From assembly GCA_046539325.1 (NCBI GenBank), contig JBKHHD010000005.1, forward strand, positions 2,165 through 66,164: a stretch of 64,000 nt of DNA. Direction: 5' to 3'. Under the pieces are notes generated by a model. That model saw nothing but the letters and a program-made list of their open reading frames with translations. It did no database searches and had not been told where the DNA came from. Numbering within the stretch: the first letter of the stretch is position 1; every line of letters begins with the position of its first letter. This DNA is from Candidatus Aenigmatarchaeota archaeon. Lineage in GTDB: Archaea > Aenigmatarchaeota > Aenigmatarchaeia > PWEA01. Shown here piece by piece: positions 3,573 to 32,213 of the stretch. The position numbers and the translations under genes are program-made.

Positions 3573-3604
3573 GATGTTTAAGCTTTAAGTAAAATCTTTT
3601 TTCT

Positions 3605-8017: not shown

Positions 8018-8040
8018 TCTTTCTTTTTCTTTTTATTCTG
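8018..8040 (+). terminator. Oligo-T tract (CTTTCTTTTTCTTTTTATTCTG) downstream of albA
   Basis: A T-rich run directly after the albA stop, matching the archaeal intrinsic terminator style. Confidence 0.35.
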
Positions 8041-9508
8041 AAAGCAAAGACTTGAAGCTATAGACCTTTCTTTCCTCAGCAAGTTCCACGGCCTTTTCCA
8101 GCCTCTTCGGATCTTCGGAGTAGATAGTTATTAGATCGTCACCCTCCTCCACGGGATCTCCTTCCTTCTTGTGGAGGTAAAATCCTGACTTCTTTTGTTT
8201 GGAACAGCCCGCTGCCTTAGCTATCTTGTTGACAGGTTCATTCTTTACACCTTTGACTCTGCCCCTCTTTTGTGCCTTCACAGTATGCTTGTTTTCTGCC
8301 AGCTCTATGTTTTCTGGTTTAGTTATCCCACCACCCTGTTTATCAACTATCTCCTTGAATTTGTCGTAGGCTTCACCAGTTCTAAGTATTTCATCAGCAT
8401 TTCTACTCGATCCTACTTCATCCAAGAGAAGATCTGCCATCTTGACCGACTTGTTCTTTAGGTCTTCAGGACCTTTCTCCCCGCCTGACTCCAGGACCTT
8501 TAAGACGTCTCTTGCCTCGAGACTGGGTCCTATTCCCTTCCCAATAGGGCTTGAACCGTCGGATATGAGGGTCATGACGTTCATATCAAGCTCCCTTCCA
8601 AGCTCCTTGAAGTTCTTAGAGAGTTTGTTTGCTTCTTCATGGCCTTCTACCTTGGTACCGTCCCCCATAGGTATGTCAATGAGAACTGTATCAGCACCTA
8701 CAGCCTTCTTTTTCGCAAGCACAGATGAAAGCAACTGCTCCAGTGGATCCAGGTTCAACGAATCCCTTACTCTGATAAACTCATCGTCTGCAGGAGCGAG
8801 ATTCAAGGCTCCACCCCAGCAGAAACATCCATTCGTCTCTTCGACTATATTTTCAATCTCTTGTAGCGAGTGCTCAACGTCAGTTATAACTTCCATGGTA
8901 TCTGCTGTTCCTGCGGGAGAAGTTATAGCTCTGGAAGAGGTCTTCGGTATCCTGTAACCTGCGGCAGCTATTATCGATACGATTATAGGCGTTGTTCTGT
9001 TCCCAGGAACGCCACCAATGCAGTGTTTGTCAAGGGCGTTCTCAACATCTATTTTTTCACCTGTATTCACCATGGCCTTCGTGAGGTCCTTCGCTTCTTT
9101 GAGAGAAAAGTCGGACATGTCTACTGCTACGGTGTAGGCCATAAGCTCAGAGTCGGTCAGTTTAAACCCGACAGCGTCCTTGACTATAGAATGTGTTTCC
9201 TCTTCATTCAACTCCTTTCCTCCAACCTTCTTCTTTATGTAGTCTACCGAATCCGGTTTTATCGAACTCTCTACCTCTACAACCTTCTGGTCCTCAACAC
9301 CTATTTCTTCCTTCGTTTCATTGAAAAGGTATATATTGCCCCGTGGAACTTCCTTTGAAGTGTCCACGATAGCCATTCCTTCTCTGTCCTTGTACTTCAA
9401 ACAGATCCTGTCACCTAGAAATATCGAGTGTTCCGCAGCGTCCCTCTCGTTGATAATGGCCACGGGCTTACCTGCCTTCACGTCCAATGTCTTTACCTTC
9501 GCTTCCAT
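8033..9508 (-). CDS. deoA: AMP phosphorylase (thymidine phosphorylase family)
   Basis: Thymidine/pyrimidine-nucleoside phosphorylase fold motifs (KHCIGGVPGNRTTPIIVSIIAAAG, SSRAITSPAGTADTMEV). Operon context with form III RuBisCO and e2b2. ATG at 9508; the GTG at 9517 is the ORF call. Confidence 0.85.
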   Translation of the reverse strand: MEAKVKTLDVKAGKPVAIINERDAAEHSIFLGDRICLKYKDREGMAIVDTSKEVPRGNIYLFNETKEEIGVEDQKVVEVESSIKPDSVDYIKKKVGGKELNEEETHSIVKDAVGFKLTDSELMAYTVAVDMSDFSLKEAKDLTKAMVNTGEKIDVENALDKHCIGGVPGNRTTPIIVSIIAAAGYRIPKTSSRAITSPAGTADTMEVITDVEHSLQEIENIVEETNGCFCWGGALNLAPADDEFIRVRDSLNLDPLEQLLSSVLAKKKAVGADTVLIDIPMGDGTKVEGHEEANKLSKNFKELGRELDMNVMTLISDGSSPIGKGIGPSLEARDVLKVLESGGEKGPEDLKNKSVKMADLLLDEVGSSRNADEILRTGEAYDKFKEIVDKQGGGITKPENIELAENKHTVKAQKRGRVKGVKNEPVNKIAKAAGCSKQKKSGFYLHKKEGDPVEEGDDLITIYSEDPKRLEKAVELAEERKVYSFKSLLSE

Positions 9509-9519
9509 GGTTAACACAA

Positions 9520-9777
9520 CTATTCCATAGCTCTTGATTTATAAAGATAGACCACGAGCTCCGTAGCCACTATCACGGCTATAGTTGTGTTGAGAAACAA
9601 AAAGGCAAGGTCTCCTATGAAGTAAGAGTGCGAAGCCAGGAGAACTGAACCTAGAAGACTGAATACAATGAACTTTGGATTTATAGCCTCAAGGCTTTCA
9701 CTTTTCAGTGTAGTTACTGTCTCAGGTATCCAGGCTGCCAGAAGCAATATAGCCCCCAACCATCCTATGTTTATCAT
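9520..9777 (-). CDS. Small 3-TM membrane protein (unknown function) inside the AMP-pathway operon
   Basis: 85 aa with three hydrophobic helices. Its ATG overlaps the rbcL stop as TAATG at 9775-9779. Ends 11 nt before the deoA ATG. Confidence 0.45.
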   Translation of the reverse strand: MINIGWLGAILLLAAWIPETVTTLKSESLEAINPKFIVFSLLGSVLLASHSYFIGDLAFLFLNTTIAVIVATELVVYLYKSRAME

Positions 9778-11036
9778 TACTCCCACTTCTCCATAGCCTT
9801 TCTGAGCTCTTCCTTTTCTTCCGAAGCCTCTTCCAGGTCCACGCCGTCCATCGTGGCTTCACATGCTTGTCTTATTGCCTTTGCACCTGCTTCCGTGCCG
9901 TCTGGATGCCCGTGGCAGCCTCCGCCGAACTGCGCCACAATATCCTTGCCCATCCTTTTCGTCAGTTCAGGTATATCTCCAGGATGGAGGCCACCTGATG
10001 CCACCGCCACAGTTTTCTTCTTGTCCCTCCAGTCTTGGGCAAGATTTCTCTTTCCGTCTCCGTAGCTCTGTGACTCGACGGCCTGTTCTATTCTCAGGAC
10101 CTTGTCTTCACCACCCTCCATCTTACCTACGTCTGCTGTACCGATGTGCAGCTGATCGCCGCCGATAAGCCTGGTGAACTTCGCCACGGCCAGCATGCTC
10201 ATTCCATGCTCCTTGTTCCTAGTGAAGGCGGCGTGTCCAGCCCTGTGGCAGTGTATCACCACATCCTTTCCTTCAAGGTAGTCGCGCATCTCCTGAAGTG
10301 CGCTCCATCCGGTCGTTATTATATCTATCATAACGTAGTTGCTTCCCTTGTCTATGAGGTAGTCCGCCCTCTTCTTCATCTCGGAAACTGGCGCTGTTAC
10401 ATTTCCCATGTACTCCTTCTTTTCTCCTGTCTCCTTCTCCGCTTTTTGTTTGAGACGCATGGTTTCGTCCACCCTTCTACGGAAGGTGTTGAAGGTCATG
10501 GAGCTCAGATTTTCGTCGTCCTTTACGATATCCAGACCTCCCTTCCAGGCCTTGTACGCCACCTCTGCGTGTCCTTGAGAGTCCAGACCTAGCTTCGGCT
10601 TGACTATCGTTCCGAGAAGAGGCCTCTCATCGACCCCGAACAGCTTCCTTATGTCCTCGAGGCCAACCTGCGGCCCACGATGTTTTTCAAGAAGCTCCTC
10701 CGGAAACTTTACGTCCTCGAATCTGAGTTTGTCTAGAAGCTTCATTCCGAATATATTACCCGCGATGGAGGACAGTATCTGTGGAACATTGCTCAGCTCG
10801 AACAGCTCCTTTGGATAGGCTATCTTAGCGTACGGCTTGTCTATCTCGAAGACTCGCGCCTTTATACGTCTCGCCCTTTCGTTCACTGTTTCTATGTGCG
10901 TCCACGTACCTACGCTTGATTCCTTTGCTATGTTTGCTGCGGCCTTTTCAAAGGAAAGTTTTTCAGAAGGTTCTATACGGAACAGACAGATTATGTCGCT
11001 GTCATCGGGCTCGTAGTTCTCATCAATAAAATCCAT
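9777..11036 (-). CDS. rbcL: Ribulose-1,5-bisphosphate carboxylase/oxygenase large subunit, form III
   Basis: GLDIVKDDENL, HRAGHAAFTR and GGGCHGHPDG RuBisCO active-site motifs. Its 419 aa length and lack of a small subunit indicate the archaeal form III. Confidence 0.9.
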   Translation of the reverse strand: MDFIDENYEPDDSDIICLFRIEPSEKLSFEKAAANIAKESSVGTWTHIETVNERARRIKARVFEIDKPYAKIAYPKELFELSNVPQILSSIAGNIFGMKLLDKLRFEDVKFPEELLEKHRGPQVGLEDIRKLFGVDERPLLGTIVKPKLGLDSQGHAEVAYKAWKGGLDIVKDDENLSSMTFNTFRRRVDETMRLKQKAEKETGEKKEYMGNVTAPVSEMKKRADYLIDKGSNYVMIDIITTGWSALQEMRDYLEGKDVVIHCHRAGHAAFTRNKEHGMSMLAVAKFTRLIGGDQLHIGTADVGKMEGGEDKVLRIEQAVESQSYGDGKRNLAQDWRDKKKTVAVASGGLHPGDIPELTKRMGKDIVAQFGGGCHGHPDGTEAGAKAIRQACEATMDGVDLEEASEEKEELRKAMEKWE

Positions 11037-11053
11037 ATAATCACGGTGTATTT

Positions 11054-11911
11054 TTACTGAAGGCTGAAACTTCCCTTCAACTCCTCTATGATCTCGTGCT
11101 TCTTCATTTCTCCGTCCTCGGTTATAAACTTGTCGATCTTTGACCAGGGCGTCATGTCAAAGGCAGGATTTTCCAGCACCAGCTCGTGCTCCTTCTCCAG
11201 GTGCTCGTGCTCCTCTATCTCGTCAGGCGATCTCTCCTCTAGATCTGAAAAGTTGTCGTAGTCGAACTTGTCCTTCGTCGCTATAAACCAGAACTCCGTG
11301 TCGGGATCCTCTTCCGCAGCTACGGAAAGGAGATAAGTACCTATTTTGTTTAAGACTCCCGACGGCTTTACCGAGTCCACGCCCACGAAGACGTAGTCTG
11401 CAGCCCACATATAGAGCCCTGCAGCCGCATCAACTATATAGTTAACCGGAATACCCATTTCATGGAGCTCCTTTGCTGTCTTTACACCCTGAAGCTTCGG
11501 CTCAGTTTCCGTTACGATCACACGGAAGTCCTTGTCCCTGTCAATCAATGCTTCAAACGTTGCCATGACTGCAGATGAGTGGCAGTGTGTTAGTATCACG
11601 GATTCGTCCTCTACCTTGTCTGCAGCCAGTCTTCCAGCTTCATGCTTAGCAGTGTTTAGGTAGTCAAGCGTGGCGTCTATCGCTTCTATTTCACCCTTCC
11701 TTTTCACAAAGTCTATAGTGTTGTGTGCCGAGACGCCCGTTGGCCTTGCGTTCTTCAACCTTTCAGCGGCCCCGTCAAACTTCTCGCCGAAACCTTCTTC
11801 TTCAACTATCTTTGAGAGAACTTTCAAGCTTTCCTTCGCTATACTTTGTGCGCCTTGAATCTCCAGATTCTTGATCTTTTTCACGGTCTCGTCGACATCT
11901 GGCATGGCCAT
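11054..11911 (-). CDS. e2b2: Ribose-1,5-bisphosphate isomerase (eIF-2B alpha/beta/delta-like)
   Basis: eIF-2B family fold. Position immediately upstream of rbcL and deoA as in known AMP-pathway operons. Confidence 0.8.
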   Translation of the reverse strand: MAMPDVDETVKKIKNLEIQGAQSIAKESLKVLSKIVEEEGFGEKFDGAAERLKNARPTGVSAHNTIDFVKRKGEIEAIDATLDYLNTAKHEAGRLAADKVEDESVILTHCHSSAVMATFEALIDRDKDFRVIVTETEPKLQGVKTAKELHEMGIPVNYIVDAAAGLYMWAADYVFVGVDSVKPSGVLNKIGTYLLSVAAEEDPDTEFWFIATKDKFDYDNFSDLEERSPDEIEEHEHLEKEHELVLENPAFDMTPWSKIDKFITEDGEMKKHEIIEELKGSFSLQ

Positions 11912-17917: not shown

Positions 17918-17959
17918 CAACCAAAACAAATAAGTTCTTTGGTTGTGCTATTTTTACTT

Positions 17960-18298
17960 ATGGGGGACTTTGTCAACGATTACGAAGAGGCAGCGGAAGT
18001 TTTGAGAGAGTTACTAAGCGATAGACCGATGCAGGTGACAAGGCTTTACGAAACCTTTGTGGATGAAGCGAATTCTGAAATAGGTAAACAAACTTTCAAC
18101 AGGGCAATTGAGGAACTGAAAGGTAAGGGAGAGATAAAACAGTATAAGTGGCGTGAATTGATCGAGGAATATGAAAGAGTATCAGACCCACCGCGCGGAA
18201 GGAAGCCGGCTGAGAGAGTTATAGTTACTTCTCAAGAAGACGAAAAAGAATTAAATAAAATAATGAGAGAATACACAAGAAGGAAATGCCGGGCTTAA
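17960..18298 (+). CDS. Hypothetical protein
   Basis: ATG at 17960 (MGDFVNDYEE...). 112 aa, basic C-terminus. Confidence 0.4.
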   Translation: MGDFVNDYEEAAEVLRELLSDRPMQVTRLYETFVDEANSEIGKQTFNRAIEELKGKGEIKQYKWRELIEEYERVSDPPRGRKPAERVIVTSQEDEKELNKIMREYTRRKCRA

Positions 18299-18301
18299 GT
18301 G

Positions 18302-18491
18302 TGCGCCTGTGGTCTAGTCTGGCCTAGAGAATTGCGTGATGGAAACTGACGTAGATGTAATCTACGTCTTCGTTCGCGCTCTTTGGGTAAGACTCGAGCC
18401 TCCCATGCTCGAAACCCGGGTTCAAAGGGCCCTTTTAGAAAAAGCGTCCACGAAAAAGACGCAGGGTCGGGAAATCCCGGCAGGCGCACCA
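18302..18491 (+). tRNA. Candidate intron-containing tRNA, modelled as tRNA-Gly(CCC) with two non-canonical introns and encoded CCA
   Basis: 5' GCGCCUG pairs with 3' CAGGCGC, followed by ACCA. D-arm-like UGGUCUAGUCUGGCCUAGA after the acceptor. Hairpin CGAGC-CUCCCAU-GCUCG (18395-18411) fits an anticodon arm with CCC. CCGGG-UUCAAA (18416-18426) plus U-CCCGG (18475-18480) reconstitute a canonical T-arm if a ~48 nt insert is removed. A ~65 nt insert sits between the D region and the anticodon arm. Hand-folded only. Confidence 0.4.
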
Positions 18492-18506
18492 TTCCACCTT
18501 ACTTTT

Positions 18507-19358
18507 TTATTCAATTACCTCGTCGGGTACTTGACATGTTTCCTCGTTTCCTGTAGAAGTCCACTGACATTCCAAACCAGAACAACAGTCTTCATCATTG
18601 TCGCATACTTCATCTGCATCTGCACATACTTTTGTAAAGTTCGCTGTGATAGACATATCCTGGAAAACGGTGAGTGTACAGGGATTCGCAAATTGCCCGT
18701 CTTCACAGTGTGTACCATCTCCTTTCCATTGGTTAAAACCGTAATCATCATCCTCGGCTTCAGCTTCAATGGTCACCTCTTCGCCTGTTTGAGGATACTT
18801 ATGCTCACCGGGTTCAGGAATTGTTGTCCCAACTCCTCCTGTTTCCACAGTTATGTCTAGGATATATGGTTCCTGAAAAGACACCTTAACACTTCTATTC
18901 GTAGACATCGTGACATTGCATTCGTTCCCTTCTGATTCATCACAACCAAGAAGTGCACCCATTATATAATCTTCATTTGGGTAAGCTGTTAGTTCTACCT
19001 TCGTGTCTTCCTCATATTCGTACTTCCCGTTTACTCGTTCTCCCTCGGGGTCTAGGCTTGTATCCCCACCCTCTTCTGGGTAGGGCGTTATGTTTAGATA
19101 CTTGTAATTCTCACTTTCACCATTTTCTTCATTGTCTCCTTCGTTACCCTCGTCTCCACCGTCATTGTCTCCTGTTCCATCCTCACTGCCGCCTCCTAAA
19201 TCGAGACTTGAATCCTCGTCGAACAATTTCTCCTGCGTTTCATTAATCGGCGAAGTGTCAAAACTTGTCCTGAAGAAAGCAATGAGTCCAAGCATGACAA
19301 TACTTAACAGCACTATAGTCACAACAGGTTTTATACCGAAGGATCCTTTGTCTTTCAT
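18507..19358 (-). CDS. Class III signal peptide (pilin-like) secreted protein, acidic with Cys-rich C-terminus
   Basis: MKDKG|SFGIKPVVTIVLLSIVMLGLIAFF N-terminus (ATG 19358, GGAG 8 nt upstream). Gly/Asp/Glu-rich linker and a C-terminal domain with about 10 Cys. Confidence 0.6.
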   Translation of the reverse strand: MKDKGSFGIKPVVTIVLLSIVMLGLIAFFRTSFDTSPINETQEKLFDEDSSLDLGGGSEDGTGDNDGGDEGNEGDNEENGESENYKYLNITPYPEEGGDTSLDPEGERVNGKYEYEEDTKVELTAYPNEDYIMGALLGCDESEGNECNVTMSTNRSVKVSFQEPYILDITVETGGVGTTIPEPGEHKYPQTGEEVTIEAEAEDDDYGFNQWKGDGTHCEDGQFANPCTLTVFQDMSITANFTKVCADADEVCDNDEDCCSGLECQWTSTGNEETCQVPDEVIE

Positions 19359-19438
19359 ACACAACTCCTTATATTATACCTACTTGTTAGTTTTTTAATA
19401 GTTTGTTATAAGAACGCTTTGATAATTCTATAGGCTCT

Positions 19439-19792
19439 TTAGTAATTTTCGCAAGGTCTACAAGCCACTTCAATACATACATCGGAATACTGGCCACAAT
19501 CTCTTTCGTGTGTACAACCATCCTGGGTTTTGGGACACGTACTTTCTGTTATATTCCAACTACTGCATACATCCTCACAGTTTATATTATCGCCTCCATT
19601 TCCATCATTTTCTTCACCACCTCCTTCCCCGTCTTCATCTCCGTTTGTCAGGTTGCTTTCAATTTCTTTGAAGGGTGAATTATCCCAGCCATCTAGTAAA
19701 AGGGTTGCTGCTGCTGCTAGGACTATTATCATAATAATTAAACCAAGGAGGCTGCTTATAGTAAATTCAAAACCTTTACTTGAAGAGATCAT
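19439..19792 (-). CDS. Class III signal peptide (pilin-like) small Cys-rich protein
   Basis: MISSSKG|FEFTISSLLGLIIMIIVLAAAATLLL. C-terminal 8 Cys. Confidence 0.55.
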   Translation of the reverse strand: MISSSKGFEFTISSLLGLIIMIIVLAAAATLLLDGWDNSPFKEIESNLTNGDEDGEGGGEENDGNGGDNINCEDVCSSWNITESTCPKTQDGCTHERDCGQYSDVCIEVACRPCENY

Positions 19793-20054
19793 TGTGCCTG
19801 TCTGTTTGGATTTCCTGTCTTCTGATCAATTTTCCATGCGGGGTTATCTGATGAATATCATAATGGGTAGGTGAAATGGATAGCTCAGGTAAAAGATCTT
19901 CAGCATCGCTTGCAGTTTCGTTTACTGCTTCTTCTTTCCAGGCAGAGGTGAAAAGTGCGACGATGGCCAGGAGCACTATTATAGCCAGTGTCAGGACAAC
20001 CACAGCCTTAATAGGCATCGATACTCCTTTTGAAAGTTCAGTATTTTTCTTCAT
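19776..20054 (-). CDS. Class III signal peptide (pilin-like) small protein
   Basis: ATG 20054 gives MKKNTELSKG|VSMPIKAVVVLTLAIIVLLAIVALF. The ATG overlaps the upstream gene's stop as ATGA. Confidence 0.55.
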   Translation of the reverse strand: MKKNTELSKGVSMPIKAVVVLTLAIIVLLAIVALFTSAWKEEAVNETASDAEDLLPELSISPTHYDIHQITPHGKLIRRQEIQTDRHNDLFK

Positions 20055-20338
20055 GTTGGTCCTGTCCCTCCACGGCAACAGATTGCATCTATTTCGCCCC
20101 AATCATCATTCCATTCTTGTTCCTCAATTTCGGTGCATCTATCCGGACCGTTTGTACAACATCCAATTTCCTCGTATTCCTGACAAATAGTTCCTCTGTC
20201 TCCAGTTTCATTCAAATCACCGAGCATACCTTCCGCCGGTTCCATAGCTCCTCCCAAGACTACCGCAAGGACTATGATTGCTAGTATTAAGCCTGGGAGT
20301 GCAGTTTTCCAGCTCAAACCCTTTTTTCTCATCATCAT
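20051..20338 (-). CDS. Class III signal peptide (pilin-like) small Cys-rich protein
   Basis: MMMRKKG|LSWKTALPGLILAIIVLAVVLGG. C-terminal 7 Cys. Confidence 0.55.
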   Translation of the reverse strand: MMMRKKGLSWKTALPGLILAIIVLAVVLGGAMEPAEGMLGDLNETGDRGTICQEYEEIGCCTNGPDRCTEIEEQEWNDDWGEIDAICCRGGTGPT

Positions 20339-20366
20339 AAAGTTACCTCTTCTAATTTAAAATCCT

Positions 20367-20630
20367 TTATGTCATAGTCTCGTCGCAGCAAAATTCAAAG
20401 GGATCCTCTTCTCTTTCCCAGCCCAGTTGATCTTGTTGACATCTCTCTAAGTCTGGTTCCTGGCAGCAGCCCCTCCTTACATACTCTATGCAGTCATTAG
20501 CTCCCTCATGGACGTCGTTCGTCTCATCTCCTCCAAGGGAAAGTGCTAAAAGCAGCACAACAATTACAGCTGAAATCAGAACTAACCCACGTTTCGAGAT
20601 CTTTACCTTTGTACCAGGTATCTTGGGCAT
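20367..20630 (-). CDS. Class III signal peptide (pilin-like) small Cys-rich protein
   Basis: Start at ATG 20630 gives MPKIPGTKVKISKRG|LVLISAVIVVLLLALSLGG; the longer ORF to 20720 is likely an over-call. C-terminal CC..C..CC pattern. Confidence 0.5.
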   Translation of the reverse strand: MPKIPGTKVKISKRGLVLISAVIVVLLLALSLGGDETNDVHEGANDCIEYVRRGCCQEPDLERCQQDQLGWEREEDPFEFCCDETMT

Positions 20631-20667
20631 GGTTAGACAATGGCCCTTATAGTTTAAAACTTTTTGC

Positions 20668-20832
20668 TTAGAAAGGGACGAGGGCATCGAGAAAGTCGAG
20701 CAAACCGTCGATGTTTGCACTTATCGCACCTGTTATTCCTTCAGCAATGATAAACATCACTAGTAAGGCGAGGACCACGTAAACAACTAATTCCATGGCC
20801 TTAATTCCTTTTTTACCTGAAAACCAGTCCAT
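20668..20832 (-). CDS. Mini-pilin: 54 aa class III signal peptide protein (absent from the ORF track, below 60 aa)
   Basis: Hand translation gives MDWFSGKKG|IKAMELVVYVVLALLVMFIIAEGITGAISANIDGLLDFLDALVPF with a TAA stop. It sits directly downstream of a conserved promoter motif (20855-20884). Confidence 0.55.
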   Translation of the reverse strand: MDWFSGKKGIKAMELVVYVVLALLVMFIIAEGITGAISANIDGLLDFLDALVPF

Positions 20833-20854
20833 GCCTAATTATAGTTAACTTTGT

Positions 20855-20884
20855 TTTTTAAGTTTAAAGTGAAATCATTGCATG
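20855..20884 (-). promoter_or_regulatory. Conserved promoter/regulatory motif (minus-strand sense CATGCAATGATTTCACTTTAAACTTAAAAAA), copy 1
   Basis: A near-identical 29-30 nt element recurs at 23248-23276. It contains a TTTAAAC/TTAAAA TATA-like core 23-37 nt upstream of ATG 20832. Confidence 0.5.
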
Positions 20885-20956
20885 TAACCATGATTTTTCT
20901 AGAAATGTTCCGATCTCCTTCTTATCAAATCCTAAACGATGAAAAGCTACGTAAAT

Positions 20957-23161
20957 CTACGTAATAATTCTACATTCAGCACCTCCACATCTTCCCCCGC
21001 CACCGTCATCGTTATCATCTCCATCATCAGAGCCTTCAAGATATTCTGTAACACAAACCTCTCCGCCGTCTTCATCCCCACTCCCTTTGTCGCCTCTATG
21101 CCCGTCGATATCGTCGAGTATGTCACCATTTGCTTCCCAGCCACCACCTTGACCGTCTTGGTCCCAACTCCCGGAGGATACACCATCACCACCATCACCA
21201 CCACATTCATAATGATTAGAATTATCATACGGACAGTCTCCGTTCCCATCATCACCCTCATATTCTGGAGAGCCTGACCATCCACCATCACCGCCTCTTG
21301 CTCCTCCTCCACCACCATATTCAAAAATTGTGGCCTTATGGCCCGCACCACCACCACCGCCGGCTGCAGCTAAAAACTCTTCACTCCCATCATCGTACTT
21401 TAACCATAGTTCGGTTGATCCTCCACCTCCACCTGCTTCACTTCCTCCGTAACCACGATTTCCCCCATCTCCACCGTCGGGTTTTCCATAACCACCACTT
21501 TCCTTGTATCGCTGGCTGCCTGCATTTCCAATAGATATATTAAGGTTTACTTCTTCGTCTATAGTGAATGCACCTTGCACGTAGCCCCCTTCACCACAAT
21601 CTCCATCTTTGCCTGGGTCTCCACCGTCGGCACCATAAACCTCTATCTCGTAGTTCCCGGGGTCGAGTTCCAATGCATCATCACCTACATAGTCGTAACA
21701 TTCTGTGTTCACGCTTAGTTCGGTGAATTCAGCTGTTATCTCTTTGTCTCCGTCCATTTCAACAGTCAGTTCTTCACTTCCATTTCTTTCGTCGCCTGTC
21801 CATTTATCCAGACTCCAATCAGGAATATCCGGGTGTGCTTTGAGGGTTATTTCCTCGCCTTCTGGTACGTAGGTTATTCCAGGAGAAGGGACTGTGTAAC
21901 CTCCTTTTGGATTTTTTACATCTATTTTGAGGACCTTCAATTCTACATCCGTATAGTTCCTCCCACTGTTGAAGGTCCAGGTGTGCTCGAAGTCCCATCC
22001 ATATTCTAGGCCCTCCGTCCTTGTATCTGTGTAAGTGGTCTTACTTTCCATGACTTCTGTTTTCTTCGGTGTTCCAGCTCCTCCATGTGGATCCTTAGTG
22101 ATGCCTGCTGTATCGTAGTTCCAGAAAGAGTTTCCTACAACGGAATCACTGTTACTGTATCCTATAAGTCCATTGATATCATTCCCGCCAGTTACTTGAC
22201 CCGTTGAATATGCATTGTATACTATTCCTGATGCTGACGTGTATCCTACCAGTCCACCTACACACCACCCATTGCCATTGACATGTCCTGTAGAATATGA
22301 ATCTAATACTATCCCACTATTACTTCCCACGAGGCCTCCTGTGTTGTTTTTTTCTCCAGAAATATTACCAGAGGAGTACGATTTAAAAATATCTCCACTG
22401 TTGTATCCTACTAGTCCACCTACGTTACTATGTCCATCAATGGTTGCCGAAGATGAAGAACTTGAAATTTTTCCATCGTTGTATGCTACTAGTCCCCCGG
22501 CCCTTAGGAATGAGTCTTCATCTGAAGCCGTATTTTTGGTAATTATTTTGCCTCTGACCCTTGAATTTAATATATCTCCCCAGTTGACACCTATCAATGC
22601 AGCGACTCTGTCCTCTCCACGGATACTTACATTTACTAGTTCTAAGTTTTTGATTTCTGATGAATCATTGGTATGAGCGAAAAGTGCCGCGTCTTGACTA
22701 GACCTATCTATGTGTAAATCCGTTATTTTATGCCCTTGTCCGTGTAATTCCCCCTTAAATTGGTGGTCAGGCCAGTCGCCTATTGGTTCAAACCCATCGC
22801 CATTGTTCCACTCCTTTGTTCCACTGCAGTCTATGTCGTTTTCGAGATAGTAATTTCCTCCTAGGTCCTCGTTTATATTCTGAAGTTCTTGACAGCTTTC
22901 TATTGCTGTGGCATCATCTGGCGGATCTCCGGTCCTGTCCTTTGGGTGTATGTTCTGCCATTGAAGTATAGGATACTTTGTTCTGTGCTCTACTAGGTCC
23001 TCACTCCGTCTTTCACCAGTATCCGTTAGGTCACTGGAACCTTCTTGTAGCATGTCGCCTAGCTCTGTGAAAATAACACCAACTACCAGAAGTGCTATTA
23101 CGGCTCCTACTACTAGTCCAAGGGTGAATTCAACTCCAGAACGGCCGAGGAACATTGACAT
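20957..23161 (-). CDS. Large class III signal peptide surface protein with GLUG-type repeats and Gly/Asp-rich C-terminal tail
   Basis: N-terminus MSMFLGRSG|VEFTLGLVVGAVIALLVVGVIF. Central repeats (GGLVGYNSGDI, TGGLVGSNSGIV, VGGLVGYTSASGIV, INGLIGYSNSD) followed by SFWNYDTAGI, as in the GLUG motif family. Last ~200 aa are low-complexity G/D/E (GGGGGAGHK..., GGDGGDG...). Confidence 0.6.
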   Translation of the reverse strand: MSMFLGRSGVEFTLGLVVGAVIALLVVGVIFTELGDMLQEGSSDLTDTGERRSEDLVEHRTKYPILQWQNIHPKDRTGDPPDDATAIESCQELQNINEDLGGNYYLENDIDCSGTKEWNNGDGFEPIGDWPDHQFKGELHGQGHKITDLHIDRSSQDAALFAHTNDSSEIKNLELVNVSIRGEDRVAALIGVNWGDILNSRVRGKIITKNTASDEDSFLRAGGLVAYNDGKISSSSSSATIDGHSNVGGLVGYNSGDIFKSYSSGNISGEKNNTGGLVGSNSGIVLDSYSTGHVNGNGWCVGGLVGYTSASGIVYNAYSTGQVTGGNDINGLIGYSNSDSVVGNSFWNYDTAGITKDPHGGAGTPKKTEVMESKTTYTDTRTEGLEYGWDFEHTWTFNSGRNYTDVELKVLKIDVKNPKGGYTVPSPGITYVPEGEEITLKAHPDIPDWSLDKWTGDERNGSEELTVEMDGDKEITAEFTELSVNTECYDYVGDDALELDPGNYEIEVYGADGGDPGKDGDCGEGGYVQGAFTIDEEVNLNISIGNAGSQRYKESGGYGKPDGGDGGNRGYGGSEAGGGGGSTELWLKYDDGSEEFLAAAGGGGGAGHKATIFEYGGGGGARGGDGGWSGSPEYEGDDGNGDCPYDNSNHYECGGDGGDGVSSGSWDQDGQGGGWEANGDILDDIDGHRGDKGSGDEDGGEVCVTEYLEGSDDGDDNDDGGGGRCGGAECRIIT

Positions 23162-23247
23162 GGAAACTCCTATGTACTAATTGATTGTCTTGATTTTAAA
23201 GTTTTAGTAAGCTTTCTCCTAGATCTTGGTGCGGTTTTCTCCTTTAA

Positions 23248-23276
23248 TTTTAAGTCTAAAGTTAAATCATTGCATG
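23248..23276 (-). promoter_or_regulatory. Conserved promoter/regulatory motif, copy 2 (minus-strand sense CATGCAATGATTTAACTTTAGACTTAAAA)
   Basis: Matches the 20855-20884 element at about 26 of 29 positions. Lies ~90 nt upstream of ATG 23161, with GGAG 7 nt before the ATG. Confidence 0.5.
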
Positions 23277-23320
23277 GTCAACTATTCGGAGAAACTATGC
23301 TCCCAAAAAACTCTCCTTTG

Positions 23321-24415
23321 CTAAGGATCATCCTGACAAACACATCTATCATGCATCCCTGACACACTTTTACAGTCCTTCCACTCGTACTCGCCTTTTG
23401 TTGCTCCTGTTTTTATACACTTATAATCTTGGTCACATTCGTCACCAGAATCGGAGCCATCGCCACATCCATCACCGCTCTCATCCACCGATTCACAGGC
23501 CATTACTTCGCCCTCACAACACATCTTCTGGTTACCATCCCACGTTGCACCTGAGTCCTTGCACTCATCACCAACTTCGCATTCGTCTTCGTCACACCCA
23601 TCCTCATCATCCTCGTCACCATTATCTCTTGAATAAGATGAGGGTTGAATAGTTTGTGAAGAGCTGTATTCGTCCTTGATCAATACCTTTGGTTTTTGCA
23701 TATTACCTTTTAGATCAACGGAGTAGGAAATATCATATACCTCGACATTGCATTTTACTTTTGTCATAGCATAGCCACTTTTTGTATCGCCCCATGAATT
23801 GATACAATTGTCTGCATTATCGTCTGGTTCCCATTTACGCCTGTCGGAAGAAACATCTTCTTGATAACAGGGATTTTCTGATTGTTGAACCACTTCCTTG
23901 TATCCCCTGCACTGACAGTACTGGTCTACATCATCCCAGGAACCTGTCATGCTCGAGCCACATTCGCCCCAGCCTGTAAAATCCCGGGCATTAACGTCTA
24001 CAGGGAAGTCAACCACCACAGGTTCTAAAGACTTCTCCACATGCAAATAGTTAACACTGAGGCTCATATACTGCTGAGGGTCCTCTCCGTCACCGGTCAT
24101 TTCTGTACCGTTTAGGCTGTCTAAATAGCTCTTAATTTTTTCCTCTATGTCGTCAATTCCAGGTTCACCATCTTCCTCCGAATAGGCTTCTCTTGTTCCA
24201 AGCCACACTGCATCATCGACGAGATCTCTTGAACTATCATACCTCAACTTCGCGTTTATGGTTTCTGATTGCTCCAGGCCTATTCGACCTGCACCAGTAG
24301 ATCCAGTAACCAGCACTGTAAATGCCACCGCCAGTCCTCCCCCTACGATTACTGCACTGACTACTCCAACCACTAATAAGCTTATAGCTCCACTTTCGGA
24401 TGACATTTTTGACAT
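23321..24415 (-). CDS. Class III signal peptide (pilin-like) protein with acidic, Cys-rich extracellular region
   Basis: ATG 24415 gives MSKMSSESG|AISLLVVGVVSAVIVGGGLAVAFTVLV. More than 25 Cys in CxC/CC clusters in the C-terminal half; many D/E. Confidence 0.55.
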   Translation of the reverse strand: MSKMSSESGAISLLVVGVVSAVIVGGGLAVAFTVLVTGSTGAGRIGLEQSETINAKLRYDSSRDLVDDAVWLGTREAYSEEDGEPGIDDIEEKIKSYLDSLNGTEMTGDGEDPQQYMSLSVNYLHVEKSLEPVVVDFPVDVNARDFTGWGECGSSMTGSWDDVDQYCQCRGYKEVVQQSENPCYQEDVSSDRRKWEPDDNADNCINSWGDTKSGYAMTKVKCNVEVYDISYSVDLKGNMQKPKVLIKDEYSSSQTIQPSSYSRDNGDEDDEDGCDEDECEVGDECKDSGATWDGNQKMCCEGEVMACESVDESGDGCGDGSDSGDECDQDYKCIKTGATKGEYEWKDCKSVSGMHDRCVCQDDP

Positions 24416-24468
24416 TTTATCAATCCTTGTTTTATTTACTGTAAATTCTATCTGACTTGTTAATTTAT

Positions 24469-24936
24469 TCAACCGCCTGCATTTTTATCGACAAGTATTG
24501 CCCTACCAAGCTTCTCATTTCCTAATAGGATGGTTCTTGAGGCCACTTCTTTTCTTGGATCATCCGGTCTTCCATGGATATATGTATTGCCTTGGTATTC
24601 AAAACGAATATAATAGTTGTCACCATTCTCCCCCTGAAATTTATTCTCCAAATCTTCTATTTCATCGTCTATGTCATCATTACGGCCGTTGTAGGTGTAG
24701 ATATAATCTATAAACTTCCTGCGGACTGATTCGCCGTTATCGTCCTCCGTTCTCAGGAAGGCACTAAGTACTATTTCATCTGTATGTCTATCGATCTCTT
24801 CAACTTCGATCTCGACATCCCTCTTTAGTTCAACAAAGTAGTTTATCGTGAAAAGTACGAGAAAAAACATAGCAGTGAATATAAGTGTGGCTATGAGTAT
24901 CGTGAACTGCCCTTTTTTGTTTTCTCTATTTATCAT
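24469..24936 (-). CDS. Class III signal peptide (pilin-like) protein
   Basis: MINRENKKG|QFTILIATLIFTAMFFLVLFTI. Confidence 0.55.
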   Translation of the reverse strand: MINRENKKGQFTILIATLIFTAMFFLVLFTINYFVELKRDVEIEVEEIDRHTDEIVLSAFLRTEDDNGESVRRKFIDYIYTYNGRNDDIDDEIEDLENKFQGENGDNYYIRFEYQGNTYIHGRPDDPRKEVASRTILLGNEKLGRAILVDKNAGG

Positions 24937-24946
24937 GTTTCATCTC

Positions 24947-25924
24947 CTAAACCTTTTTCCAGTAAGCTTCTGTGCTTGATCCAGAGTGGACATCACTTAC
25001 ACATTCATACATATCTGCACACTCATTTCCAACGTATTCGAGGTCGCACTTCTCTACTGTCCCGTTGTCGCAACATATCTCTAACTCTTCTCCCCGGGTA
25101 TCATATACCTCAGTGTGATAGAGATCAATATCCTCAAGAATGGTCCGAGAGTAGGTACAGGGTTCTTCACCTGCTTCTACAAAATAACTGGTTTCATCAC
25201 CCTTTTTTACTGCTGAAGTTTCAACATTTTCGTCGAATTCCATCTCTGGTACCTTCAGATTGTAGTCTTTGAATATATAGGTTGCCTTTCCCTTGTCGTC
25301 TATCCTGGCATCTATTTTTAACCTATCACCTGTTTTTCCTTTATCAGACTGGATAGTATGATTTTTATCGAACATAGTTTCCAATTTGAGAGGCTCGCCA
25401 TCTTCATACCAGGCTATCTTCCCTGTCCTGGTAGTAGAGGGTCCGAAATGTGGTGGATGTACCATGTAAAAAGTTGCGGTCCCGAGATTGTTTCCAGATC
25501 CCGTGTCTATAGTCACAGGCACATCCCACTCTGTGATATCTCCTACGACAATATCGCTGAGATCATTACCAAAGCTGTAGTCTTTGTTTTTTTCATGGTC
25601 TTCGACCTCTACGTAAGTCCAGACTGTTGGGTGGTGTGCACAGTCGAGAGCCTCGGTCCCGTCCTTTCTGTTGAGTTTAGCTTCGGAAAGAACTGCCATT
25701 TCGCCTGTCGAGAGGCAATCGGGCGAGGAAAGGATTTCGGCCATTACACTGTTGGCCTGAACCTTGCCCATACTGAAGGAGTACCCTTCAACAGCTATGT
25801 CTGTGGGTGCTATAATGAAATAGTAAAATACAAATACAAAACCTACCAATACTATAGTGTATAGAAGATACCAGATGAAGTCTCCTCCTGAAAGCCCTTT
25901 CACTCTTTCTTTAAAATTCAGCAT
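24947..25924 (-). CDS. Class III signal peptide (pilin-like) protein
   Basis: MLNFKERVKG|LSGGDFIWYLLYTIVLVGFVFVFYYFII. C-terminal Cys cluster. 14-nt overlap with the upstream gene. Confidence 0.5.
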   Translation of the reverse strand: MLNFKERVKGLSGGDFIWYLLYTIVLVGFVFVFYYFIIAPTDIAVEGYSFSMGKVQANSVMAEILSSPDCLSTGEMAVLSEAKLNRKDGTEALDCAHHPTVWTYVEVEDHEKNKDYSFGNDLSDIVVGDITEWDVPVTIDTGSGNNLGTATFYMVHPPHFGPSTTRTGKIAWYEDGEPLKLETMFDKNHTIQSDKGKTGDRLKIDARIDDKGKATYIFKDYNLKVPEMEFDENVETSAVKKGDETSYFVEAGEEPCTYSRTILEDIDLYHTEVYDTRGEELEICCDNGTVEKCDLEYVGNECADMYECVSDVHSGSSTEAYWKKV

Positions 25925-27353
25925 AATCCTCTACCACCTTATTGAGCTCACCGTCTTTTATCTCGATAACACTTCCACATTTTATGGTTCGTTCTGGCAT
26001 GTACCACGTATCTTCAAAGTCCCAGCCTCTGCTTTCAGAAAAGGTTTCTTTACTTGTCATTTCTGCCATGAAAAGGGGCTCTCCTGCGCCACTGTCCTGG
26101 TCCAGGGATATTCCTGCTGTGGCCATGTTCCAGAAAGAGCTTTCAACAGTAGCCTCACTTGAACCTATCAGTCCACCAAATTCTGCTGATCCTTCTGAAG
26201 GATTGACAGTTCCAGCTGAATAAGAGTTATTAATGGGATTTGATGATGAAGCCTGATGGCCTACTAATCCCCCTATTTTAAGCGTACGTAGATCCGCTTC
26301 GATATGAATGTTTGATGTGCTGTAAGAGTTAGAAATACCTCCATCGAGATGTGTTACACCTACAAGTCCCCCGACTCTATCTCCTTCGGCTTTAACCATA
26401 CCCGCCGAGAATGATTCTGAGATATCTCCATGTGAAAATGAACCTGCTAGGCCACCGACCTTTTCTTCCCCTTTGACATAGGCCTTGCTATAGGATTTGC
26501 TTATATCTGAGGTTTTCTGCGAACTAGATCCAACTAGTCCGCCTACAGAACTACTTCCTTGTACTGAACCGGTGGTGTGTGATTTTTTTATATCTGAGAA
26601 ATAAGCATTTCCGACTAATCCACCAACTGTATTTCCACCCTTGATTTTTACATCTTCAACACCGATGTTTCTTATTTCGCCCTCGGAAACGTACCCAAAC
26701 AAGCCAACATTATCTTCATTTGCTCTGTCAATATATAAGCCGCTTATTGTATGTCCTTGGCCGTCGAACTCCCCCATGAAGTAATTATGGTTTTTCTGTT
26801 CTCCTATCGGCTCCCAACCCTGTCCTCCGTTAGCGTCTCTTCCTGCGACCTCTTCATAACCGGGGGTATCCGAATCCAGATTATTCTTCAGGACGTAATT
26901 TTTATTTAAGTCATTTCTTATATCATCCAGATCATTCCAGTTTCTTATAGGGACGGAGTCTTCATGTTCACCTTCTATTTCTTCGTTGTTCTTTTCCCAA
27001 CGATGTTTTGGAAAGGACGGCCCCTTATGGAAGTTCCAGTAGGTTTTAGTGGTTAAATTATCTTCGTCTTCAACATCCAGTCTCGAACGTACAGCATCCT
27101 TTGTAAAGGTGATCTCACAGTCTGAAGTAAGCAAGGTTCTCTTTTCGATAGTAGTTTCTTCAGGAAAAGCCGAAGTGATCGTCATGTCGCTCGCGAGCTC
27201 TACGTTCTGATGCTGTATTTGGTTCTCTGCGCCCAATGAAATGAGCTCTGTTACCATATCCCCGCCGACAACCATCACCAGTAGCATTAGAATTACTATA
27301 ACAACGAGGCCGAGGGACTTTCCAATAGCGACTCCTTTCGTCCATGGGGACAT
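25911..27353 (-). CDS. Class III signal peptide surface protein with GLUG-type repeats
   Basis: MSPWTKG|VAIGKSLGLVVIVILMLLVMVVGG. Repeats VGGLVGNAYFSDI, VGGLVGSSSQ, VGGLAGSFSHGDI, VGGLVGVTHLDGGI, IGGLVGHQASS, FGGLIGSSEA, then SFWNMATAGIS. Paralog of the 20957-23161 product. Confidence 0.6.
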   Translation of the reverse strand: MSPWTKGVAIGKSLGLVVIVILMLLVMVVGGDMVTELISLGAENQIQHQNVELASDMTITSAFPEETTIEKRTLLTSDCEITFTKDAVRSRLDVEDEDNLTTKTYWNFHKGPSFPKHRWEKNNEEIEGEHEDSVPIRNWNDLDDIRNDLNKNYVLKNNLDSDTPGYEEVAGRDANGGQGWEPIGEQKNHNYFMGEFDGQGHTISGLYIDRANEDNVGLFGYVSEGEIRNIGVEDVKIKGGNTVGGLVGNAYFSDIKKSHTTGSVQGSSSVGGLVGSSSQKTSDISKSYSKAYVKGEEKVGGLAGSFSHGDISESFSAGMVKAEGDRVGGLVGVTHLDGGISNSYSTSNIHIEADLRTLKIGGLVGHQASSSNPINNSYSAGTVNPSEGSAEFGGLIGSSEATVESSFWNMATAGISLDQDSGAGEPLFMAEMTSKETFSESRGWDFEDTWYMPERTIKCGSVIEIKDGELNKVVEDYAEF

Positions 27354-27399
27354 AATAGTTTAATTATATCTTTTGTTTAAAATTGTTTATATTCCCCTT

Positions 27400-27798
27400 T
27401 CAGTTCTCCGGAACGCTTGGGTTAAGTGTATACTGGCATGCAATATATTCGTTACCTTTTTTGCACATCCCATAATAGTTACTTTCTTCATCTAGAACTC
27501 CTTTCCAGCCCTCGGGACAGAAACAGTCTGAGTCTTCTACAGCGTTATATTCGTTGTTAGGCGTTCTCACTGCATCCACGCACGTTACGTTCCATTCATC
27601 GTCCTCTTTTGTGCTATTAGGTCTACAGTTTCCATCTCTGATACAGGCAGCAGGGTTATCATTATGCTGTTCACAGCCTATGTCCATATCGGAGAAATTC
27701 ATCGCAAGAAGGACTATTACCACGAGTGCCAGACTTAGCTTTATCATTAGGAAAAGTATTTCTTCCATTGACTTTGAAGTTCCTTTATTAGAGATCAT
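27400..27798 (-). CDS. Class III signal peptide (pilin-like) Cys-rich protein
   Basis: MISNKG|TSKSMEEILFLMIKLSLALVVIVLLAMNF. 10 Cys in the C-terminal domain. Confidence 0.5.
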   Translation of the reverse strand: MISNKGTSKSMEEILFLMIKLSLALVVIVLLAMNFSDMDIGCEQHNDNPAACIRDGNCRPNSTKEDDEWNVTCVDAVRTPNNEYNAVEDSDCFCPEGWKGVLDEESNYYGMCKKGNEYIACQYTLNPSVPEN

Positions 27799-27799
27799 A

Positions 27800-27946
27800 T
27801 CAATACTCCAGCACTGACAATGCTGTTTCTATAGTAGGCTCGAGTGTATAGTAAATTATACCTACTATAAGGGCCAGTAAGATAAGAATTGCAATTATTT
27901 TCAGAGGATCCTTTGTTGTATTTGATATATCATAAAAAGTTGACAT
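27800..27946 (-). CDS. Possible 48 aa single-TM protein (not in ORF track)
   Basis: Hand translation gives MSTFYDISNTTKDPLKIIAILILLALIVGIIYYTLEPTIETALSVLEY. Tightly packed, with 1-2 nt gaps to both neighbours in the same orientation. Confidence 0.3.
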   Translation of the reverse strand: MSTFYDISNTTKDPLKIIAILILLALIVGIIYYTLEPTIETALSVLEY

Positions 27947-27947
27947 T

Positions 27948-28094
27948 TTATATTCCCCTAATTCTATGTATCAGTAGATCTGATATATTTCCCAAAGAGC
28001 CTTCTGCAGTTAGAATTAAAGCCGTGGCAATCGCGAGAATTATAAGTGCCCCTATCAGAAACAATATCGTACTGCTGAATCCCTTTCTTTTCAT
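27948..28094 (-). CDS. Mini-pilin: 48 aa class III signal peptide protein
   Basis: ATG 28094 gives MKRKG|FSSTILFLIGALIILAIATALILTAEGSLGNISDLLIHRIRGI. The longer ORF call to 28145 would overlap the next mini-pilin. Confidence 0.5.
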   Translation of the reverse strand: MKRKGFSSTILFLIGALIILAIATALILTAEGSLGNISDLLIHRIRGI

Positions 28095-28102
28095 CCTTTC
28101 AC

Positions 28103-28276
28103 CTAGATCAGATTGCCTAAAAACTGCATCATGTTTCCTATCCATCCTTCACCGGAGCCGATTATATCAGTCCCAATTAAAAAGAGCATTCCAACGAGTA
28201 TTACAACTGCTATTATTGCAACGAGCACTTCTAAAGACATCTTCCCCTTTTTAAGAAATCTAGCTTTGTTCAGCAT
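28103..28276 (-). CDS. Mini-pilin: 57 aa class III signal peptide protein (not in ORF track)
   Basis: Hand translation gives MLNKARFLKKG|KMSLEVLVAIIAVVILVGMLFLIGTDIIGSGEGWIGNMMQFLGNLI with a TAG stop at 28103-28105. Confidence 0.5.
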   Translation of the reverse strand: MLNKARFLKKGKMSLEVLVAIIAVVILVGMLFLIGTDIIGSGEGWIGNMMQFLGNLI

Positions 28277-28319
28277 CTTCGCTCTACCTTTATTTTATCC
28301 TCTCCTGCATTTAAATATG

Positions 28320-29435: not shown

Positions 29436-29540
29436 TCTATTTTCCGAACTTTCGTAATTTCTCAAAGTTATCACCTAAATTAAGTAGCTGGGAACCGTCT
29501 TGAATCCCATTGACCTTAATGCATACCTTTAAGTTTTCTA

Positions 29541-30896: not shown

Positions 30897-30901
30897 CTCA
30901 A

Positions 30902-31108
30902 TCAGAATGCTATACCGAATTTATCCGTGACGAAATAAACTATTACAAATACTATCAATACCAGTATTAATATCGCTATGGCGGATAAGATCGAACTTTC
31001 GCTTGCTTCCTGCAAAAATACACACCAAATAACGTTTTCGAACGGAGTTAAATATATTTTGTCCTTGCCTTTGCCTCGTCTACTCGTCTTTAGGTTCGTA
31101 CTCTTCAT
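30902..31108 (-). CDS. Possible small C-terminally anchored membrane protein (uncertain start)
   Basis: The ORF in this gap ends ...SSILSAIAILILVLIVFVIVYFVTDKFGIAF. The upstream part of the 140 aa call overlaps the next gene out of frame, so only the 3' portion is proposed. Confidence 0.2.
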   Translation of the reverse strand: MKSTNLKTSRRGKGKDKIYLTPFENVIWCVFLQEASESSILSAIAILILVLIVFVIVYFVTDKFGIAF

Positions 31109-32171: not shown

Positions 32172-32213
32172 CTCAATCTCTCTATATTATCCTAGTTTTT
32201 TGTGTTTTAATTT

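Follow-up and report, generated by a model that had tools for sequence, protein, structure and literature searches.

Does the tRNA-like element beside a pilus locus in an aenigmatarchaeal contig encode a working tRNA, and where exactly would its introns begin and end? The element lies in a 64,000-nt stretch of contig JBKHHD010000005.1 (assembly GCA_046539325.1, Candidatus Aenigmatarchaeota archaeon), called the window here, and all positions without a locus name refer to it. A reading made from the letters alone (the sequence-only reading) had proposed a tRNA-Gly(CCC) gene whose D and T regions each hold a non-canonical intron, removed through bulge-helix-bulge (BHB) motifs. In-silico splicing, BHB geometry, covariation and orthologues all supported this proposal. 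We consider it very likely that 18303-18491 is a real, functional tRNA-Gly(CCC) gene with two introns that are predicted to be spliced by protein enzymes.

The gene occupies 189 nt of the plus strand (18303-18491) and is composed of three exons and two BHB introns. The parts of the gene and the signal behind it are the following:

18303-18327, plus strand: exon 1, tRNA positions 1-22, with the acceptor 5′ strand GCGCCUG, U8 G9, D-stem GUCU, D-loop AGUCUGGCCUA and G22.
18328-18390, plus strand: intron 1, 63 nt, in the D-arm, probable position 22/23, relaxed HBh′-like BHB.
18391-18426, plus strand: exon 2, positions 23-59, with D-stem GAC, U26, the anticodon arm, variable loop AAAC, T-stem CCGGG and T-loop UUCAAA.
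18427-18474, plus strand: intron 2, 48 nt, in the T-loop, position 59/60, near-canonical hBHBh′ motif.
18475-18491, plus strand: exon 3, positions 60-76, with U60, T-stem CCCGG, acceptor CAGGCGC, A73 and the encoded CCA.
18503-18508, plus strand: oligo-T run TTTTTT, 12 nt past the CCA, read from the sequence.

The 5′ end reads GCGCCUG-UG-GUCU-AGUCUGGCCUAG... and the 3′ end ...CAGGCGC-A-CCA. The acceptor stem (18303-18309 × 18481-18487) is the perfect 7-bp helix that had been noticed before, and A73 (18488) and the encoded CCA follow it directly (18488-18491). The gene starts at 18303 and not at 18302 as first placed. The anticodon hairpin CGAGC-CUCCCAU-GCUCG was found where it had been reported (18395-18411), with the anticodon CCC at 18402-18404. 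The T-arm CCGGG-UUCAAAU-CCCGG indeed assembles only when an insert is removed, and this insert of 48 nt begins at 18427, one nucleotide before the limit first given (18428-18474). Between the 5′ half of the D-arm and the anticodon arm lies a spacer of about 65 nt, which contains the expected perfect 9-bp hairpin, GACGUAGAU (18348-18356) with AUCUACGUC (18360-18368); its loop is the 3-nt GUA instead of GUAA. The oligo-T run is likely the archaeal transcription stop of the tRNA gene.

In-silico splicing gave a 78-nt canonical cloverleaf. It carries G1-C72, C2-G71, G3-C70, A73, A14, G18 G19, A21, the R15:Y48 pair, the T-loop UUCAAAU and the anticodon CCC. The archaeal tRNA-Gly identity set comprises an NCC anticodon with C35 C36, the pairs G1-C72, C2-G71 and G3-C70, and A73. 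Direct reading of the sequence found these archaeal-type features in the product (acceptor GCG.../...CGC, CCC, A73).

The tRNA detectors behaved differently on the unspliced and spliced forms. ARAGORN with default settings did not detect the unspliced 18303-18491 and called only a tRNA-Met elsewhere in the window; its intron mode also missed the gene and gave only spurious calls at lowered threshold. The Rfam tRNA model had no match to the unspliced locus, neither at the gathering threshold nor at E ≤ 10. Invisibility to ARAGORN and to the Rfam model is the behaviour expected of non-canonical introns. The ARAGORN check proposed by the sequence-only reading therefore came out negative for the gene as it stands and positive after splicing, when the window sequence was called as tRNA-Gly(ccc), as were all eight full-length spliced sequences of the locus set described below. 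ARAGORN accepted several slightly different D-arm junctions, so its acceptance supports the gene and cannot fix the junction. Genomes like this one may be scored as being without tRNA-Gly(CCC) when the gene is missed by ARAGORN and Rfam, which lowers completeness estimates and distorts the inferred decoding capacity of DPANN metagenome-assembled genomes.

Other readings of the same letters were also considered. A split or permuted tRNA gene was ruled out, as the three exons are collinear within 189 nt. An intron-encoded box C/D small RNA was rejected: the motif GUGAUGG...CUGA occurs in intron 1 of the window only and is not kept in L136, L005, L132 and L133, and an Rfam scan at E ≤ 10 gave no meaningful match for such an RNA. 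The sole C/D-family match of that scan was to the eukaryotic SNORD111 model; it lies upstream of the gene at 18203-18296, on the other strand, and reached 15.1 bits against a gathering value of 46. Two mechanical open reading frames (ORFs) overlap the tRNA gene, at 18295-18492 (minus strand, 65 amino acids) and 18336-18860 (plus strand, 174 amino acids). Neither is in the contig's public annotation, and both are very probably spurious.

Related loci were found by a pattern scan of one-genome-per-species contigs together with a walk through homologues of the neighbouring OGG gene. Nine independent related loci were obtained (L005, L008/L036, L129, L130/131, L132, L133/134, L135 and L136/137); L129 ends at its contig end, and eight loci are full length. 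A metagenome scan with the anticodon/T-arm pattern was dominated by unrelated eukaryote-type tRNA-Gly genes, and among the matches listed the one relevant locus was L036, a near copy of L008. The OGG-type glycosylase adjoining the tRNA is identical, residue for residue, on JBKHEG010000001.1 of the metagenome-assembled genome GCA_046540935.1 (Candidatus Aenigmatarchaeota archaeon). The loci share the gene order FEN1, hexapeptide transferase, DUF123, RNase H-like, OGG, a variable slot and tRNA-Gly(CCC), with 57-90% amino-acid identity to the window, and are therefore taken as orthologous. L135 is the exception to this order, and its downstream synteny differs. The orthologous tRNA-Gly(CCC) genes have the following positions:

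L132, 3384-3642
L133, 4538-4768
L136, 3373-3589
L135, 2094-2348
L130, about 3434-3628
L008, about 245-138, minus strand

The tRNA body of the orthologues showed 87-99% identity to that of the window, and exon 1 was invariant in 6 orthologues, its boundary being set by the conserved BHB. The introns showed only 38-60% identity and varied in length (D-arm 32-63 nt, T-loop 32-95 nt). Near-invariant exons with diverging inserts indicate a functional intron-interrupted gene and not a pseudogene or a chance likeness; purifying selection acts on the exons only. The number of introns also varied. L008 has one intron (59/60), the window and L005 have two (D-arm and 59/60), L130 has two (37/38 and 59/60), and L132, L133, L135 and L136 have three (D-arm, 37/38 and 59/60). 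Intron 1 is thus missing from L008 and L130. The introns behave as discrete present or absent units at one fixed syntenic locus, and this orthologue series with one, two or three introns is a compact natural data set on the gain and loss of BHB introns.

One orthologue and one further locus, L007, showed peculiarities of their own. L135:2094-2348 is a more divergent orthologue with the anticodon loop CCCCCAA, in which C33 replaces the near-universal U33 and A38 is present; this points to an unusual tRNA that still functions or else to a pseudogene at an early stage. L007 (minus strand, about 330-170) is an intron-less tRNA-Gly(CCC) of Candidatus Asbonarchaeum danakilense with a second GGGTTCAAATCCCGGCCGG copy about 80 nt downstream; this copy is a direct repeat, att-like, of the 3′ part of the tRNA, and possibly marks an element integrated at that place.

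In archaea the splice signal consists of a 4-bp helix between two 3-nt bulges, and relaxed hBH and HBh′ motifs are tolerated in some lineages (PMC4090602, PMC5829648 for the relaxed motifs; PMC4090602 for the signal itself). In the geometry that we applied, helix H joins the 4 nt of exon just before the 5′ bulge to the 4 nt of intron just before the 3′ bulge, and the cut in each bulge follows the second nucleotide. This rule agrees with the definition given in PMC4090602. The relatives' canonical introns at 37/38 fitted it exactly, which validates it within the data set: H is formed by C32-C35 × GGAG, with CA|N and AG|U as bulges; the anticodon stem serves as h, and h′ is up to 9 bp long. In L135 the altered loop CCCCCAA is matched by a compensating GGGG in place of GGAG on the intron strand of the central helix.

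With this rule the T-loop intron was placed firmly. In an unbiased scan of all cut pairs, 59/60 came out as the best BHB candidate for each orthologue. The T-stem, with 5 bp, serves as h in the window, and h′ has 6 bp (18428-18433 × 18463-18468). H contains U54-A, U55.G, C56-G and an A57 × G mismatch, with the partner strand GGGA at 18469-18472, and this mismatch becomes A-U in five orthologues (H of 4 bp). The bulges are A58 A59 | G18427 on the 5′ side and A18473 A18474 | U18475 on the 3′ side; an inner hairpin is formed by 18444-18448 and 18458-18462. All 8 orthologues kept h of 5 bp, H of 3-4 bp and h′ of at least 5 bp from differing sequences. Covariation was measured on a fixed-register junction alignment of seven orthologues, with L135 scored separately. 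In this alignment 91.6% of cells were paired and 5 pairs had changed on both sides; none of 500 shuffles reached the observed values, and slid registers dropped to 25-64%. The 59/60 BHB fold lay 1.6-2.5 kcal/mol above the local minimum free energy (MFE; window 1.9 kcal/mol), compared with 0.3-2.9 kcal/mol for the 37/38 introns. The top scan rank, the covariation and the near-MFE fold together place intron 2 at 18427-18474, position 59/60. Both 59/60 and 22/23 are on the published list of non-canonical archaeal intron positions (PMC4090602).

Intron 1 was more difficult to place, because AGA, UA and GG repeats flank both of its ends and make the junction ambiguous by eye. Every junction that leaves a legal D-arm was enumerated and scored on all intron-bearing orthologues, and BHB-constrained folding energies (dE) were calculated for six full-length sequences that carry intron 1. 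The best register cuts after G18327 and after A18390, at position 22/23. Its H has 4 bp (18322-18325 × 18385-18388: G.U, C-G, C-G, U.G) and was paired in 7 of 7 orthologues (100%). Within H, U.G changed to U-A in L136, and L135 showed G.U to G-C together with a full compensatory swap of C-G to G-C; over the whole D-arm BHB alignment, 7 pairs had double changes. The bulges AG|A (A18326 G18327 | A18328) and AA|G (A18389 A18390 | G18391) were invariant. Further inside, an outer stem (18334-18339 with 18374-18379) encloses the 9-bp hairpin, and with the 22/23 cuts the remaining intron helices fell exactly into line in each of the six independent intron sequences. This register was also the cheapest tRNA-yielding BHB in all six folded sequences, with dE of 2.8 kcal/mol in L135, 5.4 kcal/mol in L136 and 10-12 kcal/mol in the others; other D-arm registers had dE of 9.5-29 kcal/mol. 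The 22/23 product has the D-loop AGUCUGGCCUA with A21 and the D-stem GUCU/GGAC, and the intron-less orthologues match it (A21 in both L008 and L130, GGAC in L008). The cut predicts the exon junction ...CCUAGGACUCG, i.e. ...GGCCUAG^GACUCGAG.

From this pattern of pairing and energy, the exact D-arm junction is probably 22/23. We keep to this wording because the motif is relaxed and the 3-nt 5′ bulge can slide. The BHB check at both junctions thus gave a near-canonical motif at 59/60 and a relaxed one at 22/23. Several observations weigh against the placement. The D-arm BHB has no contiguous outer helix h, and its 3′ site lies in a 3 × 3 internal loop. The BHB fold of the window D-arm is about 12 kcal/mol above the MFE, and the MFE of the naked RNA favours an unbroken helix in which the 3-nt bulge has moved to 18331-18333. 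Pair counts do not separate these two positions of the bulge. Other junctions also give plausible D-loops, either AGUCUGGCCA with AGAC or the AGUCUGGCCU with AGAC of the sequence-only reading.

The latter is the strongest competitor. It leaves the gene and the T-loop intron as they are and cuts the D-arm at ...CCUAGA|CUCGAG, in any of four registers (AGA/AGA repeat), giving a 64-nt intron and a 77-nt tRNA with the D-loop AGUCUGGCCU, the D-stem GUCU/AGAC and the junction ...CCUAGACUCG. Its D-stem has four Watson-Crick pairs, ARAGORN accepts the product, and with a relaxed motif the 3′ cut could shift by one nucleotide and allow it. However, the product has U21, and both orthologues without intron 1 have a genomic A21. 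Its best BHB (register r1) has a G × G mismatch in H and loses more pairs in L136 and L135, so that 68% of the H cells were paired, with no covariation, and it cost 4-7 kcal/mol over 22/23 in every orthologue. We therefore regard this cut as unlikely. The D-region intron of the sequence-only reading stands, and its hand-derived AGA|...|C junction with U21 gives way to the 22/23 splice 1-2 nt away.

A cut one helix turn further out, ...GGCC|UAGAG...GGGU|AAGAC with the junction ...GGCCAAGACUCG, is a still poorer candidate. It scored well in the BHB scan of the window (H 4/4, h′ 4 bp), and its product, with the D-loop AGUCUGGCCA and the D-stem GUCU/AGAC, comes near the intron-less L130, from whose D-arm it is one C apart. 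But three of its four H pairs are G.U and showed no covariation, H collapses in L135 (xxx|; dE 14.9 against 2.8 kcal/mol), and the register was 5-7 kcal/mol worse than 22/23 in all orthologues, which makes it quite improbable. Further candidates were rejected outright. The junction that reproduces the L008 D-loop exactly (UCUGG|...|UAAGAC) formed no BHB (H 0/4, dE 24-29 kcal/mol); junctions at p = 21 and p = 24-26 with various q had broken H helices; and an inner BHB around the MFE bulge at 18331-18333, well formed in the window, leaves a D-loop of 19-21 nt.

The D-arm intron of the window itself looked composite at 18334-18379: a match to the outer stem GCGUGA/UCGCGC is found in the L136 intron, and matches to the nested hairpin GACGUAGAU/AUCUACGUC are found in the introns of L005 and L132.

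With the 22/23 and 59/60 junctions, the processing of the transcript can be proposed. The gene would be transcribed as a 189-nt precursor with two protein-spliced introns. At each junction, pairing between the 5′ exon and the intron's 3′ end would create the 4-bp helix between two 3-nt bulges. EndA would cut each bulge after the second nucleotide, at four sites in the precursor, and an RtcB-type ligase would join the exons to the 78-nt tRNA. CCA addition would be unneeded with the CCA encoded. The anatomy, the BHB geometry and its compensatory upkeep are observed; EndA cleavage and RtcB ligation are predicted from established archaeal tRNA splicing (PMC4090602, PMC5829648), and expression is predicted as well. 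The proposal is weakened by the finding that Pfam scans of the predicted proteins in the 64-kb window gave no EndA, RtcB or archease gene; the splicing machinery is assumed to be present in this genome, and splicing and expression are deduced from the gene's sequence.

A decaying pseudogene, or a tRNA disabled by two insertions that stay in place while another tRNA-Gly reads GGG, would fit the relaxed D-arm motif, the expression of the gene being a prediction, and introns of 63 and 48 nt exceed the typical median of 12-25 nt (PMC4090602). We give this explanation very little credence. The exons are 96-99% identical where the neighbouring OGG protein is only 57-75% identical, whereas the inserts diverge freely; the inserts keep the BHB geometry through compensatory changes, and their positions coincide exactly across as many as eight lineages. 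These three patterns demand selection that keeps the gene spliceable and functional.

The surroundings of the gene contain the following features:

17939-18298, plus strand: ORF of 112/119 amino acids without Pfam match, in the slot between OGG and the tRNA.
18507-36561, minus strand: type IV pilus-like operon, most proteins without Pfam match.
20957-23161 and 25911-27353, minus strand: large GLUG / ALK-LTK glycine-rich proteins.
32214-34313, minus strand: T2SSF platform protein (Pfam).
34294-36561, minus strand: T2SSE ATPase (Pfam).

The stop codon of ORF 17939-18298 lies 4 nt before tRNA position 1. Any promoter of the window tRNA must lie inside this ORF; an A/T-rich box at about 18251-18267 is a candidate. 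This short slot is the one stretch that varies: in the relatives it holds a PALP-domain gene (L129, L133) or is empty (L130, L132, L136, L008). On the other side, the pilus locus adjoins the tRNA as had been described, with its T2SSE and T2SSF genes, and the stop codon of its ORF 18507-19364 (minus strand) lies 15 nt beyond the CCA. In several small proteins of the operon the N-terminus is of the KG|F type and looks like a class III signal peptide. A 29-nt repeat TTTTAAGTYTAAAGTKAAATCATTGCATG occurs at 20856-20884 and 23248-23276 (93% identical), just past the start codons, in the upstream (5′) regions, of two consecutive minus-strand genes of the pilus locus, 20367-20720 (117 amino acids) and 20957-23161 (734 amino acids), and may be a shared promoter or leader. 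Farther away on the minus strand (8033-11911), a RuBisCO large-subunit homologue (9777-11036) is flanked on one side by a gene resembling nucleoside/AMP phosphorylases (8033-9517) and on the other by a member of the IF-2B family (11054-11911); these genes make up the set used for AMP salvage in archaea (form III RuBisCO pathway).

The sequence-only reading had seen in this arrangement a landmark of island insertion. That a genomic island (the pilus locus) was inserted at the tRNA, which would owe its odd structure to att-site rearrangement, is hardly credible. In its favour, the pilus-like operon ends 15 nt from the tRNA and the OGG-tRNA slot varies among relatives. Against it, the tRNA 3′ exon is single-copy in the window with up to 3 mismatches allowed, no relevant att-like repeat was found there, and no integrase domain was detected in a scan of predicted proteins that covered greedily chosen, non-overlapping ORFs of about 110 amino acids or more across the window. 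Base composition stays flat across the tRNA. Synteny with relatives holds on both sides: upstream it takes in the FEN1...OGG block, and downstream it takes in parts of the pilus-like genes, whose minus-strand small-gene cluster includes p117b (50-72% identity) and the 734-amino-acid protein (36%).

The introns also showed likeness to one another across positions. The L133 37/38 and 59/60 introns aligned with z = 11, and the window T-loop intron aligned with the L133 T-loop intron (z = 8.6) and with the L136 anticodon (37/38) intron (z = 7.1). A common core, CCUUUU(ACUCAC)...AAAACGUYCRCGAAAA, in which A-runs enclose a small CG-UUCG/UCCA-CG hairpin, was found in the L133 37/38 and 59/60 introns, in window 18427-18474 and in the 37/38 introns of L130, L135 and L136. 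No further copies of the D-intron ends or of the intron-core motifs were found in the window or in all collected loci. Introns at different positions of this gene thus appear to be paralogous and to have been gained or lost between close relatives, and the likeness across positions suggests intron duplication or transposition. We regard it as possible, short of probable, that they form a single family of long BHB introns, mobile or duplicating, which is at present being gained, lost and copied between 37/38 and 59/60 (perhaps also 22/23) in Aenigmatarchaeota. If true, BHB-intron transposition, so far described for Thermoproteales, would extend to DPANN, and these would be very recent events from which the still unknown transposition mechanism could be worked out.

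tRNA genes with multiple non-canonical introns are known in Thermoproteales and DPANN, as the sequence-only reading had stated (PMC4090602, PMC5829648). Multi-intron tRNA genes with relaxed BHB motifs are already well known in the former and reported as frequent in the latter; our searches of the literature found no description of such genes in Aenigmatarchaeota. How BHB introns work is unchanged by this gene, and what is mildly new is the turnover of paralogous introns.

In Thermoproteales, tRNA genes carry up to three BHB introns at non-canonical sites including 22/23 and 59/60 (Sugahara et al. 2007/2008, as cited in PMC4090602). As far as that account goes, the present gene resembles those of Pyrobaculum, Thermofilum and Caldivirga in having several introns, relaxed hBH/HBh′ motifs and no visibility to standard finders. 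Unlike them, the host is a DPANN archaeon (Aenigmatarchaeota) and not a crenarchaeon, and the introns, at 48-63 nt here and with lengths of as much as 103 nt in the relatives, are long against the usual 12-25 nt. The pre-tRNA-Glu(UUC) of Methanopyrus kandleri, with a canonical intron and a relaxed HBh′ intron in the D-loop (PMC5829648), shares a D-region intron with a good 5′ bulge, H and h′ and a disrupted 3′ bulge, and likewise carries, in one and the same precursor, another intron whose motif is stricter. The tRNA and the organism differ, the second intron is at 59/60 here and at 37/38 there, and cleavage was seen in vitro for M. kandleri (PMC5829648), while the present cuts are predicted.

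For DPANN, broad-specificity EndA and many disrupted tRNA genes have been reported (PMC5829648), and a raised number of non-canonical introns is reported to correlate with EndA loop insertions (PMC3239211, PMC5829648). The gene belongs to the same superphylum as these systems (ARMAN-2 epsilon2; L3-loop alpha4 EndA types), and Aenigmatarchaeota lie outside the genomes surveyed in PMC3239211 and PMC5829648. Finally, tRNA intron transposition has been inferred for Thermoproteales (Fujishima et al. 2010, via PMC4090602). So far as it is related there, the likeness is in related introns at different positions (L133 37/38 and 59/60), and the difference is that the apparently paralogous introns here lie within one orthologous gene family and in another phylum. 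Aenigmatarchaeota thereby join the lineages with multi-intron tRNA genes.

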